The notes beneath the pieces are model-generated. The model worked only from the letters and a program-made list of their open reading frames with translations. It searched no databases and was not told the DNA's origin. Shown one piece after another: positions 5,884 through 10,069 of a DNA stretch of 17,462 nt; the first letter of the stretch is position 1, and each line of letters begins with the position of its first letter. This DNA comes from a virus (lineage: Duplodnaviria > Heunggongvirae > Uroviricota > Caudoviricetes): positions 1-17,462 of IMG/VR virus record IMGVR_UViG_2711768066_000009, one strand, 5' to 3'. Both the position numbers and the translations under genes were made by a program.

Positions 5884-6558
5884 TTAGGCCTTTATTTTGT
5901 ATCTTCTTGGTTTTCCTGAGAAAATTACTGTACCAATTATAGAGCAATTACCGTTAATCTTAATGTAAGGCTCAGGCCAGTTTGGGTTTAATGCTTTGAG
6001 ATAACGCTGTGTTCCATCTTCTATCAATCGCTTGAAGGTGGTTTCGCCTGTATCGTGCATCAATGCAATAACGTCGTCACCGTGGCAGGCAGGGACTTCG
6101 GGATCAACAAAAATCATGTCTCCCGGGCGATACTCATCAATCATTGAATCACCAATCACCCGCAAGATATAAGTCATTTCGCCACAGGGTACAGGGCAGG
6201 GATAAGTTTCTGCTGTGCTCAAATCAACCTCAGAATAGCCAACTTCTTTCCATGCTCCGGCCTGTACCCATGATATGACAGGGACTAACGTTATTTGTTT
6301 GTTAGTGATTGAAACATCAGGTTTTTTTGTGATGTTCGTGGTCTGGTGTTCTTGATCAAGCCATCCGACAGGCAGGTCGAAACATTTTTCGATGTGCCGT
6401 GCCATGCTGTCACCGATATTTTTAGTAGCACCATCTCCCATAAACCTGCTGGTCTGGGTTGGCTCGCGATCAATCATGGTGGCAAAGGAAGAATTCCCGC
6501 CAACACCATCTCTCAGTTTTCTGGCGTTAGACCGCCGGATGTCATGGACTGTTTTCAT
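5884..6558 (-). CDS. cI: CI-like prophage repressor (N-terminal HTH, C-terminal S24 LexA-like peptidase domain)
   Basis: 224-aa ORF; C-terminal region (VIGDSMIDEYRPGDMIFVD...) matches the S24 autocleavage domain pattern (Ser in GDSM). Position divergent from cro; weak or absent SD, consistent with a leaderless transcript. Confidence 0.85.
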   Translation of the reverse strand: MKTVHDIRRSNARKLRDGVGGNSSFATMIDREPTQTSRFMGDGATKNIGDSMARHIEKCFDLPVGWLDQEHQTTNITKKPDVSITNKQITLVPVISWVQAGAWKEVGYSEVDLSTAETYPCPVPCGEMTYILRVIGDSMIDEYRPGDMIFVDPEVPACHGDDVIALMHDTGETTFKRLIEDGTQRYLKALNPNWPEPYIKINGNCSIIGTVIFSGKPRRYKIKA

Positions 6559-6648
6559 AAAGAAATTAAAACCTTTGTACCGATAAGGTACAAGTATCTT
6601 GAAGGTTCATATTAATCATGTAATATGTATATCGGAGGTACATATTGT
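6559..6648. promoter_or_regulatory. immunity-region divergent promoters and operators (OR/PR/PRM-like)
   Basis: 19-bp palindrome TTGTACC-GATAA-GGTACAA (6575-6593). Rightward promoter candidate TTGAAG (6599-6604), 16 nt, TAATAT (6621-6626). Imperfect second site GGTACATATTGTATG (6636-6650). Leftward -10 candidate TTTAAT directly upstream of the cI ATG. Confidence 0.55.
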
Positions 6649-6849
6649 ATGAAAGCGTATTGGGACTCTTTAACCAAAGAACAGCAGGGCGAGTTGGCCG
6701 GAAAAGTTGGCTCAACACCAGGCTACTTACGGCTGGTTTTCAATGGTTATAAAAAAGCCAGTTTTGTGCTGGCTAAAAAACTTGAGCAATGCACGTCAGG
6801 TGCAATTACGAAATCTGACTTAAGACCGGATATCTATCCGAAAGATTAA
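6649..6849 (+). CDS. cro: Cro-like HTH regulator (YdaS-like)
   Basis: Start at ATG 6649 with GGAGG upstream (MKAYWDSLTKEQ...); small HTH protein; C-terminal ITKSDLRPDIYP resembles YdaS/Cro-family proteins; divergent from cI. Confidence 0.7.
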   Translation: MKAYWDSLTKEQQGELAGKVGSTPGYLRLVFNGYKKASFVLAKKLEQCTSGAITKSDLRPDIYPKD

Positions 6850-6880: not shown

Positions 6881-7444
6881 ATGAGGCGAACCGTGGGTAA
6901 GCATCACTGGAAAGTAGAAAAACAGCCTGAGTGGTACGTGAAAGCTGTCAGAAAAACTATCGCGGCGTTGCCGGGGGGTTACGCTGAAGCTGCTGAGTGG
7001 CTGGATGTAACAGAGAACGCTTTATTCAACCGCCTTCGTGCAGATGGCGATCAGATTTTCCCGCTGGGATGGGCAATGATTTTACAGCGCGCGGCTGGCA
7101 CTCACTACATTGCGGATGCTGTCGCACAGTCTGCTGGTGGGGTGTTTGTATCGCTTCCTGAAATTGAGGAAGTAGAGAACGCCGATATAAACCAGCGCCT
7201 GCTGGAAGTCATCGAACAGATCGGGAGTTACTCAAAGCAGATTCGTTCGGCAATCGAAGATGGGGTAGTGGAGCCACACGAGCAGACAGCAATTAATGAT
7301 GAGTTGTATCTGTCAATTTCGAAGCTCCAGGAGCATGCAGCACTGGTCTACAAAATCTTTTGCGCTCCAGAAAAGAGTGACGCCCGCGAGTGTGCAGCTC
7401 CGGGCGTCGTGGCGTTTTGTGTCTGTGGAGAAACTAACGCATGA
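6881..7444 (+). CDS. CII-like/YdaT-family regulatory protein
   Basis: 187-aa ORF immediately after cro in the rightward operon; start may instead be the in-frame GTG at 6893 (GAGG upstream). Family call is from position and general resemblance only. Confidence 0.5.
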   Translation: MRRTVGKHHWKVEKQPEWYVKAVRKTIAALPGGYAEAAEWLDVTENALFNRLRADGDQIFPLGWAMILQRAAGTHYIADAVAQSAGGVFVSLPEIEEVENADINQRLLEVIEQIGSYSKQIRSAIEDGVVEPHEQTAINDELYLSISKLQEHAALVYKIFCAPEKSDARECAAPGVVAFCVCGETNA

Positions 7445-8277
7445 ACAGTTTAACGGCAAATAACCGTTTGTCGCAACAGCTGGTGGTCAGTGTCGCTGAA
7501 CACCTGTTGTTACGGCATGAATGCAGATTACCAAATCACCTGGCTGTAAGTAACCACAGAGAACTTTACCTGACTGTGGGGGGCGAGTTGTGCAGGAACT
7601 TAACCGCTGGTTTCGTGACGGAAGAGGACTTTATGTTCATGTTATTCGTTGGGAGCCAGAAACACAGCGCGTTATCTATCTTCGCAAAGACTACCCGCAT
7701 GAGTGCTTTAGTCCTTTGTGGAAATTCAGGCGTGATTTTGTTGAGTGTGAAGGACCACCAGCACATTGATTCTGCCATTCCGGGACGTTACACTGTTCAG
7801 GCACCTTATAAAGCGGGTGTCGGGATTGGCGTCCTGGAATTCAATATAGAGCATAACCGCGCTCATGCGGTTTTTTCGTATCATGAGCATTGCTACGTCC
7901 AAATTATGGTGGGGCGTGCAGGGGCATCGCAAGATGCGCCGGGTTCTATGTTGACCGGTTACGCCAACCCTGTACGTCTCACCACCTCTGTGATTGGCGT
8001 CCCATGTGGTGAGTTCTTTGAATTCAACATAGGGGCTGTCACCATGACTACTCTCCCAACCCTCGCTCGTCTGAATGATGAAGACTTACATAAACTCAGT
8101 TATGTAACAACTGCACTACGTGCTCTGCGCAAGGTAACTCTTTCGGATCCGCAGGCGCATCAGGTTCTGGTAGAAACACTTCTTAACTTGCAGGCTGAAC
8201 GTATTCGTTTGGCGGATAAGGCTAATTTTCATATTCACCGTCTCCTGAATATCAGCGGAGGGCATCGTCATGCTTAA
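7441..8277 (+). CDS. hypothetical protein (278 aa), unknown function
   Basis: Sole long ORF in this interval; ATGA overlap with the upstream gene, and its stop overlaps the ATG of the next ORF; no recognisable motifs. Confidence 0.6.
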   Translation: MNSLTANNRLSQQLVVSVAEHLLLRHECRLPNHLAVSNHRELYLTVGGELCRNLTAGFVTEEDFMFMLFVGSQKHSALSIFAKTTRMSALVLCGNSGVILLSVKDHQHIDSAIPGRYTVQAPYKAGVGIGVLEFNIEHNRAHAVFSYHEHCYVQIMVGRAGASQDAPGSMLTGYANPVRLTTSVIGVPCGEFFEFNIGAVTMTTLPTLARLNDEDLHKLSYVTTALRALRKVTLSDPQAHQVLVETLLNLQAERIRLADKANFHIHRLLNISGGHRHA

Positions 8278-8506
8278 TCCGTTGATCCTCAATATTTGCC
8301 GTTTGCTTCAGCGTAAAAAAACATCAATTCCTACAGTTGGGCAGTGGTACACCACGCCTGCAGGGCATGTTCTACGTGTTAGCCTGGTTGACCGTGAATG
8401 TCAGAAGGTGATTTGTGAACCGCTGGGCCGTAATTACCGCGTCAGTATGCCGCTTATAACCTTTCGCTCCGGAAAAAACATGAAGCATCTCGGAGGTGCA
8501 GCATGA
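8270..8506 (+). CDS. hypothetical small protein (78 aa)
   Basis: ORF overlapping both neighbours (coupled translation); no family recognised. Confidence 0.45.
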   Translation: MLNPLILNICRLLQRKKTSIPTVGQWYTTPAGHVLRVSLVDRECQKVICEPLGRNYRVSMPLITFRSGKNMKHLGGAA

Positions 8507-9321
8507 GTATGGAGCTAATGGTTAAAGCGATGAAAATTCGAGTGGGAAATCCATTGCGAAAACTGGTTCTGATTAAGCTGGCTGATAATGCCAGCGATCA
8601 GGGTGAGTGCTGGCCCAGCTACCAGCATATTGCTGACCAGTGCGAGATTAGCAAACGTTCTGTGATGAATCATATTGCGGCCCTTTGTGAGTCCGGGCTG
8701 GTAAAAAAAGTCACCCGGAAAGGTGAAAAAGGTAACTCAAGTAATATCTATCTCCTTCATCTGGATGGTGCAGGAGATTCACTAGGGGGTAGTGCAAATA
8801 ATTCACTATCTGGTGCAGCAAATTCACCAGGTAGTGCAGGAGTTGCACCAGGGGGTAGTGCAGGAGATTCACCCAGAACCAGTCACTCTTTTGAACCAGT
8901 CAAAGAACCAGTCAATGAACCAATAGCTGTTGGTGCATCTGCTGATGAGTCTGTGCGAGTTCGTTCAAACCGACCGGAATACTCTCCGGAGTTTGAGCAG
9001 GCATGGCTGGCATATCCCAAACGTGCTGGTGGCAATTCAAAATCTGCAGCCTTCAAAGCCTGGAAAGCCCGTTTGAATGAGGGGGTAAACCCCGAAACCA
9101 TGCTGGAAGGTGTGAAACGCTACGCGGGCTGGGTATCTGCGATGGGTAACAGCGGCACACAATTTGTGAAACAGGCTGTCACGTTCTTTGGTCCGGATCG
9201 TCATTTCGAAGAATCCTGGGAAGTTCCTGCGGTATCTGCAGCTAGACGTGAGGACCCGTACTTCAAAGCCAGTTACGACAACGTGGACTACAGCCAGATC
9301 CCGGCAGGATTCAGGGGGTGA
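8503..9321 (+). CDS. phage replication initiation/replisome-organiser protein (N-terminal HTH, conserved phage C-terminal domain)
   Basis: N-terminal HTH typical of phage replication proteins (LVLIKLADNASDQGECWPSYQHIADQCEISKRSVMNHIAAL). C-terminal motif EFEQAWLAYPKRAGG...KAWKA resembles the conserved phage replication C-terminal domain. Central low-complexity Gly/Ser/Ala linker coincides with DNA iterons. Confidence 0.65.
   Translation: MSMELMVKAMKIRVGNPLRKLVLIKLADNASDQGECWPSYQHIADQCEISKRSVMNHIAALCESGLVKKVTRKGEKGNSSNIYLLHLDGAGDSLGGSANNSLSGAANSPGSAGVAPGGSAGDSPRTSHSFEPVKEPVNEPIAVGASADESVRVRSNRPEYSPEFEQAWLAYPKRAGGNSKSAAFKAWKARLNEGVNPETMLEGVKRYAGWVSAMGNSGTQFVKQAVTFFGPDRHFEESWEVPAVSAARREDPYFKASYDNVDYSQIPAGFRG
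8767..8923. repeat. iteron-like direct repeats inside the replication gene (candidate origin)
   Basis: GTGCA-containing units recur at about 21-25 bp spacing (cores near 8768, 8792, 8813, 8834, 8859), including near-identical GGTAGTGCAGGAG(A)TT copies; followed by GAACCAGTCAA twice (8893-8903, 8905-8915). Confidence 0.45.
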
Positions 9322-9415
9322 TCATGAGTCTGTTAAATGACGTTCAGAAATTCATTGAAGCCCATCCGGGCTGTACTTCCGGAGACATTGCGGATGCTTT
9401 TTACGTGGGGGCTTA

Positions 9416-10069
9416 ATGAGTAATAAATATTGCCAGGCGCTGGTAGAACTGCGGAACAAACCAGCCCATGAACTGAAGGAAGTGGGCGATCAGTGGCGCA
9501 CGCCGGACAACATTTTCTGGGGAATTAACACTCTGTTTGGCCCGTTTGTTCTGGATCTGTTTACTGACGGTGATAACGCCAAATGTGCCGCGTATTACAC
9601 GGCGGAAGATAACGCGCTGGCGCATGACTGGTCAGAACGTCTTGCGGAGCTTAAAGGTGCTGCCTTTGGTAATCCCCCATACAGCCGCGCCAGTCAGCAT
9701 GAGGGGCAATACATCACCGGCATGCGTTACATCATGAAACATGCCAGTGCCATGCGTGATAAGGGCGGGCGCTATGTTTTCCTGATCAAAGCTGCCACCA
9801 GCGAAGTGTGGTGGCCGGAAGATGCGGACCATATTGCTTTTATTCGCGGGCGTATTGGTTTTGAACTGCCTGCCTGGTTTATCCCGAAGGATGAGAAGCA
9901 GGTGCCGACAGGCGCTTTCTTCGCTGGTGCTATTGCTGTTTTCGACAAGACCTGGAAGGGACCGGCAATCAGCTACATCGGGCGCGATGAACTTGAGGCA
10001 TGTGGTGAGGCCTTTCTGGCGCAGGTTCGCCAGCAGGCAGAAAAACTGGTCAGGGAGATGGCGGCATGA
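9416..10069 (+). CDS. phage Dam-like DNA N6-adenine methyltransferase
   Basis: 217-aa ORF with NPPY catalytic motif (FGNPPYSRA); size and layout typical of phage Dam-family methyltransferases; ATGA-coupled to downstream gene. Confidence 0.8.
   Translation: MSNKYCQALVELRNKPAHELKEVGDQWRTPDNIFWGINTLFGPFVLDLFTDGDNAKCAAYYTAEDNALAHDWSERLAELKGAAFGNPPYSRASQHEGQYITGMRYIMKHASAMRDKGGRYVFLIKAATSEVWWPEDADHIAFIRGRIGFELPAWFIPKDEKQVPTGAFFAGAIAVFDKTWKGPAISYIGRDELEACGEAFLAQVRQQAEKLVREMAA

Follow-up and report, generated by a model that had tools for sequence, protein, structure and literature searches.

The window considered here, i.e. the whole 17,462-bp stretch of DNA that was analysed, is the early region of a lambdoid prophage. 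In the middle of its replication initiator gene lie five short palindromes, followed by a second element with three exact copies of GAACCAGTCA. This pair of features, in which an earlier note on this DNA had seen a likely origin of replication, is listed with the other features of the region in Table 1.

The initiator protein

The replication initiator is recognised by a Pfam match to HTH_36 (PF13730) at residues 17–67 (E=1.8e-11, 44.1 bits against a cut-off of 25) and by a match to PHROG 270, ‘replication initiation protein’ (E=1e-88). Its gene shares 98–99% identity with genes annotated as coding for a replication protein in phages SfV, mEp460, cdtI and Ayreon. A counterpart of the same identity (98–99%) is present in Shiga toxin (Stx) phages of the Stx2c and Stx2a types, being unannotated or differently named in the Stx2c phages; one of its carriers, Stx2a_WGPS2, is the reference for replication type ‘Eru6’ (PMC8951638). 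Full-length copies were found in 897 of 5,426 complete Escherichia coli genomes, cultured phages with this initiator type include SfV, cdtI, mEp460, ST64B and Ayreon, and a precomputed PF13730 annotation stands on all close homologues. The Pfam scan of the initiator gave no match to PF04492 (Phage_rep_O) at E up to 0.01 and none to PF06970 (RepA_N), while DnaD_N (PF21984) scored 24.3 bits, under its 27-bit cut-off.

AlphaFold2 predicts a folded N-terminal domain (residues 1–88; predicted local distance difference test score, pLDDT, 80–92) with the topology H-H-H-H-strand-strand of a winged helix, whose recognition helix would span approximately residues 50–58 (SKRSVMNHI). With Foldseek, this domain found generic winged-helix matches only, including DnaD-N, RepA_N and Orc1/Cdc6, at E values of at least 0.013 (0.03–0.08 for 4pql, 4pt7 and 2v79). 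The helical C-terminal domain carries the motif FExAW.YPKR.GGN.K..A.KAW.AR...GV.RYA...GT..VKQA.TFFGP..HF...W. It is known from 4,518 cluster representatives, always in the C-terminal position, and is fused to at least four different N-terminal domains (HTH_36, DUF1376, the lambda-type Phage_rep_O and others). It has no sequence match in Pfam, NCBIfam or PDB, no solved-structure relative of the whole protein was found by sequence, and the predicted fold of the domain only weakly resembles the DnaD C-domain and G39P. We propose that this portable, widespread and uncharacterised module serves to recruit the replisome, presumably that of the host.

Five putative iterons and a flanking element

Five 15-bp imperfect palindromes of the form GTGCA-N5-T(T/G)CAC (TKCAC) are found within 105 bp, at 8768–8872, where they occupy codons 89–124 of 272. 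Their start-to-start spacing is 24, 21, 21 and 24 bp, so that the earlier note was right in reporting at least five repeats at roughly two helical turns from each other; its repeat core, GTGCAGGAG, is present in only three of the five units and gives way to the 15-bp palindrome. All five exact matches to this motif on both strands of the 17,462 bp lie in the array and none outside it, about 0.07 being expected by chance by our estimate, and the window holds no other iteron-like array.

The flanking element (8873–8925) has an A+C-rich top strand and a guanine-plus-cytosine (GC) content of 0.42. The tandem GAACCAGTCAA copies described behind the array correspond to three exact copies of GAACCAGTCA, at 8876, 8893 and 8905; the second and third form a tandem of 12-bp period, from which the first stands apart. 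This first copy is read in another frame (AGA ACC AGT CA, RTSH) than the other two (GAA CCA GTC A, EPV). Array and element together encode residues 89–141, GAGDSLGGSANNSLSGAANSPGSAGVAPGGSAGDSPRTSHSFEPVKEPVNEP, entirely inside the open reading frame (ORF) 8503–9321. This segment is predicted to be disordered (AlphaFold2, pLDDT approximately 30), in keeping with the linker that had been proposed.

Table 1. Features of the prophage early region, with positions in the window
Feature	Position	Strand	Sequence or remark	Basis
cI-type repressor gene	5884–6558	minus		
cro-like gene	6625–6849			
cII-like gene	6881–7444			
Ash-family ORF	7441–8277		278 residues, mechanically listed	
isrK and C4 antisense RNA matches	7801–7877 and 7902–7989	plus		Rfam
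Small ORF upstream of initiator	8270–8506		stop overlaps initiator start (ATGA)	
Replication initiator gene	8503–9321	plus	272 residues	ORF list, translation, Pfam, PHROG
Coding region of N-terminal winged-helix DNA-binding domain	8503–8766	plus	residues 1–88	AlphaFold2, Foldseek, Pfam
AT-richer, least stable stretch	8720–8769	none		nearest-neighbour stability
Iteron 1	8768–8782	none	GTGCAggagaTTCAC	
Iteron 2	8792–8806	none	GTGCAaataaTTCAC	
Iteron 3	8813–8827	none	GTGCAgcaaaTTCAC	
Iteron 4	8834–8848	none	GTGCAggagtTGCAC, perfect dyad	
Iteron 5	8858–8872	none	GTGCAggagaTTCAC	
Conserved element	8873–8925	none	CCAGAACCAGTCACTCTTTTGAACCAGTCAAAGAACCAGTCAATGAACC	family-wide codon constraint, three GAACCAGTCA copies
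Coding region of helical C-terminal domain	8962–9252	plus	residues ~154–250	AlphaFold2

Constraint on the DNA across the family

The comparison was based on 13 phage homologues of 30–99% identity and on 80 prophage loci, one genome per species, from Pseudomonas, Aeromonas, Shewanella, Xenorhabdus, Marinomonas, Aliivibrio, Enterobacterales, Pasteurellaceae and Cardiobacteriaceae. A scan of viral contigs with the single initiator protein returned near-identical copies only, of no use for divergence tests. Almost all homologous loci carry 3–8 dyad units with a period of 21–24 bp straight after the N-terminal domain. The array thus keeps its position in the gene in phages or prophages of Enterobacterales, Pseudomonas, Aeromonas, Shewanella, Vibrio, Marinomonas, Xenorhabdus and Pasteurellaceae, the only exceptions being a few decayed or truncated copies. 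Absence or lack of conservation of the repeats in homologous replication genes, which the earlier note had named as evidence against its proposal, was therefore not observed; the comparison gave the opposite result.

Units of the GTGnn-N5-nnCAC type, three to seven per locus, are found in 76 of the 93 loci. The others have TGCCA-N5-TGGCA, GGGCA-N5-TGCCC, TAGCA-N5-TGGCA or GTAGGCC-built units, or belong to the few decayed or truncated copies. In 92 gammaproteobacterial loci, from hosts in which the GC content of the C-terminal part of the initiator gene spans less than 0.45 to more than 0.55, the unit pattern was counted 302 times in the linker windows, which add up to 26.7 kb, and not once in 273 kb of flanks. 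Family-wide, 244 of 262 intervals between units measure 21–24 bp, with spacings of 22 and 23 bp as common as those of 21 and 24. The units stand in two reading frames in 50 of 75 non-identical loci and in both orientations, even inside one array (e.g. GTGCAggagaTTCAC and GTGAAtctccTGCAC), and Vibrio phage 236O40-1 carries the reverse complement of the unit of the window, encoding other residues. The arms of the palindromes are conserved and the N5 spacer is nearly free. Together with the dependence of the repeat class on the recognition helix (see below), these observations show that the DNA is under constraint and not the peptide.

The flanking element is the most constrained piece of the region. 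In most loci, counting from the start of the last iteron, AACCAGT stands at +19 and +36 and often also at +48. The 12 codons that follow the last iteron (CCC AGA ACC AGT CAC TCT TTT GAA CCA GTC AAT GAA) use their top codon in 94–100% of cases, with arginine encoded by AGA in 64 of 64 cases, serine by AGT in 63 of 63 and by TCT in 59 of 59, and proline by CCC in 59 of 59; the TTT codon is the least conserved piece. Conserved residues of the N-terminal domain use their top codon in 49% of cases on average (range 21–77%, 45 columns), which means that synonymous sites are randomised there. The contrast between the two identifies the GAACCAGTCA part as a family-wide element at the DNA level. The 9-mer AACCAGTCA was counted 136 times in the linker windows against four times in the 273 kb of flanks, and across the family it is read in three frames (RTSH, EPV and NQS), the third in phage mEp013. 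The element averages a GC content of 0.41 in the family and forms an AT-rich island in high-GC hosts (0.44 against 0.62 downstream). Sequence comparison alone thus suffices to show that repeats and flanking element are under selection at the DNA level.

This element is kept regardless of the iteron class and of the way in which the phage obtains its helicase. Aeromonas phage AsXd-1 encodes an IstB/DnaC-like ATPase and a DnaB-like protein, Klebsiella phage ST13-OXA48phi12.5 and Aggregatibacter phage S1249 a Phage_lambda_P-type loader, Pectobacterium phage ZF40 a DnaB-type helicase and Min27 a Toprim protein, and the window holds nothing of the kind.

Covariation with the recognition helix

Seven named repeat classes partition by the motif of the recognition helix. 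Helices of the form [KR]RS[VA][MIV] are found with GTGMA/TKCAC repeats, ..MR. with GTGAY/RTCAC, K[SA][AST][VA][RK] with TGCCR/TRGCA, RSTVRK with GTAGGCC, and RSTVKS with GGGCA/TGCCC. Over the sampled loci, the repeat sequence is in this way shown to co-vary with the predicted N-terminal DNA-binding domain.

A natural recombinant offers the same association within a single gene. On an E. coli metagenome contig (P0064, aligned to 8503–9318), a Min27-type N-terminal domain and a GGGCA/TGCCC linker are joined to the C-terminal half found in the window, and in the protein alignment the switch from one type to the other falls at the conserved RTxHSFEPVKEP element or close to it. In E. coli, nearly identical initiator alleles (P0001–P0042) range from 242 to 302 residues. 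They differ in two counts, that of iteron-encoded units of 7–8 residues each, of which the alignment of the linker peptides shows 1–9, and that of repeats of EPVK, a peptide encoded by GAACCAGTCAAA; this explains their lengths. Phage cdtI has eight units by way of a 66-bp duplication. Both the joint transfer of N-terminal domain and repeats in P0064 and the varying number of units among alleles fit the behaviour to be expected of iterons. One allele, P0039, is entirely devoid of the conserved flanking element and may represent a dead origin.

A model of the proposed origin

The region 8768–8925 is very probably the replication origin of the prophage, placed inside the linker-coding middle of its own initiator gene, and the proposal of the earlier note gains support from the conservation of the DNA and from the covariation with the helix. 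The five palindromes would be iterons, to each of which two N-terminal winged-helix domains of the initiator would bind as a dimer. As the sites are approximately two helical turns apart (21–24 bp), bound dimers would stand on roughly one face of the DNA and could assemble a wrapped nucleoprotein complex comparable to the lambda O-some. The segment 8873–8925 would form the common core of the family origins, where the duplex opens and the replicative helicase enters. By analogy, we take it as the counterpart of the AT-rich unwinding region of lambda, or of the 13-mers in the unwinding elements of plasmids and oriC, although its AT-richness is only mild. Since the phage encodes no helicase or loader (Pfam and PHROG annotation of the window genes showed no helicase, primase or loader gene), it is presumably the DnaB of the host, with DnaC, that the C-terminal domain recruits. 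As in lambda, transcripts that start at the early rightward promoter would traverse the site; no sigma-70-like promoter was detected in 8200–9500. From these comparisons we infer that the initiator binds and wraps the DNA, where the duplex melts and which host partner takes part.

Other genomic data bear on the location of the origin. In a complete genome of this phage type, a circle of 44.6 kb (NZ_CP148393.1), neither a second replication-type gene nor another tandem array of approximately 20-bp period was found. This record (L175) is filed as a ‘plasmid’; with its integrase, capsid and tail genes it is a complete lambdoid phage genome and probably an excised or induced prophage. The PLSDB plasmid records that carry the initiator are mostly phage-sized (~25–54 kb, several of them ~38–54 kb), the rest being larger or chromosome-sized, and no small plasmid is among them. 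As the sole record examined in full turned out to be a phage genome, this survey of plasmids is not decisive.

Several observations weigh against the origin model or against the place of melting that it proposes. Within the gene, DNA stability is lowest immediately before the array and not behind it, at 8720–8769 (GC approximately 0.35), where 30-mers rank among the 4–6% least stable of the window; the corresponding interval from -40 to -10 of the first unit has a GC content of 0.37–0.39 family-wide, which makes this stretch a possible alternative melting zone. The 30-mers of the flanking element merely rank among the 17–22% least stable, and its GC content of 0.42 is well above that of the AT-rich tract of lambda (0.22). 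The claim that no AT-rich unwinding element follows the array consequently holds for the window taken alone; across the family it does not do justice to an element that is constrained and stands out as an AT-rich island in high-GC relatives. The window contains no match to the DnaA box TTWTNCACA, a site that many iteron-type theta origins have and others lack, and no IHF consensus is present near the array. The loci were sampled through the N-terminal domain and are phylogenetically related, so that the counts of covariation are not independent events. Finally, no report of binding, origin mapping or plasmid tests for this family was found in the searchable literature.

The conservation of the flanking element allows a more speculative reading, to which we lean less than to its opposite. 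The element of approximately 40 bp (consensus CCCAGAACCAGTCACTCTTTTGAACCAGTCAATGAACC) could be a sequence-specific, portable ‘melting and loading pad’ common to thousands of gammaproteobacterial phage origins, whatever their iteron specificity and their helicase system, be it host DnaB/DnaC, a lambda-P-type loader, a phage DnaB-type helicase or a Toprim protein. If so, the element would be read, possibly as single-stranded DNA, either by the winged-helix initiator through a surface conserved in the family or by a host factor of universal occurrence, and the opening of the duplex would be programmed by sequence recognition and not by AT-richness.

Alternative explanations

Plasmid iterons have roles in copy control and incompatibility too. 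The sites in the initiator gene might similarly serve control only, through autoregulation of the initiator, titration, handcuffing or a transcription roadblock, with the true start of replication elsewhere in the phage. A unit number as variable as 1–9 among alleles, the want of a strongly AT-rich tract adjoining the array in the window and the plasmid precedent (PMC5703833 on incompatibility groups) speak for such a role. We nevertheless regard it as unlikely, because neither the window nor the complete 44.6-kb genome offers an alternative array and because the array is rigidly coupled, always at +19, to a second constrained element, as would befit the core of an origin; in lambda and pSK41, moreover, this layout is a proven origin (PMC7466680, PMC5703833). 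The view that the repeats are a low-complexity Gly/Ser/Ala linker, grown and shrunk by replication slippage and functionless as DNA, deserves the least credence. It would account for the predicted disorder of the peptide and for the differing copy number of alleles, and recent duplication could explain the identity of codons between repeats. As far as sequences can tell, it is already contradicted by the frame and orientation data, the same class of 15-mer encoding unrelated peptides in two frames and both orientations; nor does it agree with conserved arms beside variable spacers, with 302 units in linkers against none in 273 kb of flanks across hosts of differing GC content, or with a repeat class that follows the recognition helix.

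Two further explanations concern mainly the flanking element. Fixation of 12 codons is equally expected from a DNA or an RNA element, and a TGA in the +1 frame can be read within CTC TTT TGA, so that the 40-nt GAACCAGTCA element in particular might act in the mRNA, by making ribosomes pause or shift frame or as a target of an RNase or a small RNA, and so determine how much initiator is made or in which form. We consider this improbable: no Rfam family was found at the element, its single strand is less structured, and its RNA folds less readily, than shuffled controls (z=+1.87), a classical slippery heptamer is missing and the TTT codon is the least conserved, and a 9-mer that occurs in three frames (RTSH, EPV and NQS) better fits a repeated DNA site. 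It is a shade less probable still that the 40-bp element is kept mainly as a recombination junction at which ‘N-domain plus iterons’ are swapped against C-terminal and helicase modules. The element does mark the exact point at which the shared N-terminal module gives way to C-terminal or partner modules, of which there are at least four kinds, and the junction of the P0064 recombinant appears to fall there. However, recombination alone cannot hold synonymous sites at 94–100% across Pseudomonas, Vibrio and enterobacterial phages beside randomised codons, a pattern that needs purifying selection on the sequence of the element, and its internal two- to threefold repeat at a fixed distance from the last iteron points to a site of binding or melting. 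A junction role and a role in initiation are not mutually exclusive.

Genes around the initiator

The small ORF that overlaps the start of the initiator gene was considered as a conserved partner of the initiator; the idea was rejected because this ORF is not conserved in the family. Downstream, the gene order given by Pfam and PHROG is a short ORF, a Dam methylase, a LexA-like gene, RusA and KilA-N. Between the initiator and Dam (9325–9414), only a 29-codon ORF can be read, MSLLNDVQKFIEAHPGCTSGDIADAFYVGA, whereas related prophages have at this position the full 164-residue PerC-family gene yfdN; the yfdN-like gene of this phage is therefore truncated or missing. Within the initiator gene, in the part coding for the N-terminal domain just 5' of the array, a terminator-like hairpin with a T-run lies on the minus strand (8711–8726, TCACCTTTCCGGGTGA CTTTTTTTAC), one such hairpin being expected by chance in the stretch that holds it.

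The long Ash-family ORF upstream contains two Rfam matches at gathering level, to the Hfq-binding small RNA isrK (60 bits) and to the C4 antisense RNA (80 bits). Situated between the cII-like and the replication genes, these putative RNAs look like an immunity cassette, either of the c4/antirepressor type of P1 and P7 or of the isrK type of Gifsy. If this cassette is real, part of the Ash-family ORF as listed could be an artefact; the ‘ash family protein’ that RefSeq gives for this phage type is shorter.

Significance

The initiator type described here is very common, in E. coli genomes, in cultured phages, in the Shiga toxin phages of Eru6 type (PMC8951638) and, through relatives, in prophages of Pseudomonas, Aeromonas, Shewanella, Vibrio and other bacteria. 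For the Stx phages with ‘non-lambdoid replication’, the searchable literature lists the genes and no origin. Our analysis provides a concrete map of the predicted origin, which comprises an iteron code, the way in which this code pairs with the recognition helix, and a core element that is conserved. Replicon specificity and incompatibility would thereby become predictable from sequence in a simple way. The region also represents a clean natural case in which predicted DNA-binding sites are superimposed on coding sequence in several reading frames. How an origin opens in which no strongly AT-rich tract is present has now become a testable question.

The principle of an origin inside the initiator gene is classical, and the origin is of the type known from lambda O and pSK41 RepA; a specialist would therefore expect an origin at this place. 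No description of the origin of the HTH_36-type family, with its iteron code, helix pairing and 40-bp element, was found in the searchable literature, older subscription papers lying outside its reach. The conserved element that is not AT-rich is the one feature that could exceed the known type.

Comparison with known origins

The origin of lambda consists of four dyad iterons inside gene O, followed by a special flanking element (PMC7466680), and the parallel drawn by the earlier note proves exact in layout. The lambda iterons are 18-bp dyads with spacings of 20, 24 and 23 bp, at codons 117–145 of 299. Like the proposed origin in the window, that of lambda occupies the middle of its initiator gene and codes for the segment that joins the DNA-binding N-terminal part of the protein to its C-terminal part (PMC7466680). 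Lambda and its variants in Stx phages have 4–6 direct repeats with an internal dyad at 20–24 bp, not always a multiple of three, as is also the case here. The distinct flanking element stands on the promoter-distal side of the array in both, the site belongs in both to the early rightward operon after cII, and the number of units varies among relatives (four in lambda, six in Stx phages, variable here).

On other points, the two systems differ. The initiator of the window belongs to HTH_36 (PF13730) and not to Phage_rep_O (PF04492), and the iteron sequences are unrelated, 15-bp GTGCA-N5-TKCAC here and 18-bp TCCCTC-N6-GAGGGA in lambda. A flank of fixed sequence and a GC content of 0.42 takes the place of the 40-bp tract of lambda with its GC content of 0.22, and the window, unlike lambda, has no gene for a P-type loader.

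RepA_N plasmids provide a second model. In pSK41 the origin is formed by four Rep boxes in the centre of rep, which encode a dispensable linker, and in the hybrid pPR9 the RepA_N domain and origin are replaced by a phage-like PF13730 N-terminal domain with its own origin segment, a combination that replicates (PMC5703833). The N-terminal domain of pPR9 is thus of the same family as that of the initiator studied here. In these plasmids a winged helix at the N-terminus binds semi-palindromic repeats, and the C-terminal domain, which can be exchanged, has specificity for the host or a partner (PMC5703833, PMC7145576). The central position of the origin in the initiator gene is shared, the linker being in our case predicted to be disordered, with 1–9 units in nature. 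Differences remain, since pSK41 and pPR9 are Gram-positive plasmids, PF06970 is not matched here, the likeness to DnaD-N and RepA_N is that of generic winged helices only, and no counterpart of the GAACCAGTCA element has been described for RepA_N plasmids.

In the origins of RK2, pPS10, F and R6K, iterons bound by a winged-helix initiator stand beside repeated 10–13-mers where the duplex opens, and in such Gram-negative iteron plasmids the initiator can bind one strand sequence-specifically (PMC4081077, PMC10602881). By this comparison, the three GAACCAGTCA copies would stand for the 13-mers. The Gram-negative iteron origins are intergenic, AT-rich and usually equipped with DnaA boxes, whereas the region described here is entirely coding, only mildly AT-rich and devoid of a DnaA box. 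It shares with iteron-type theta origins the direct repeats at helical-phase spacing, here within the gene of a winged-helix initiator, and the covariation between repeat and recognition helix.

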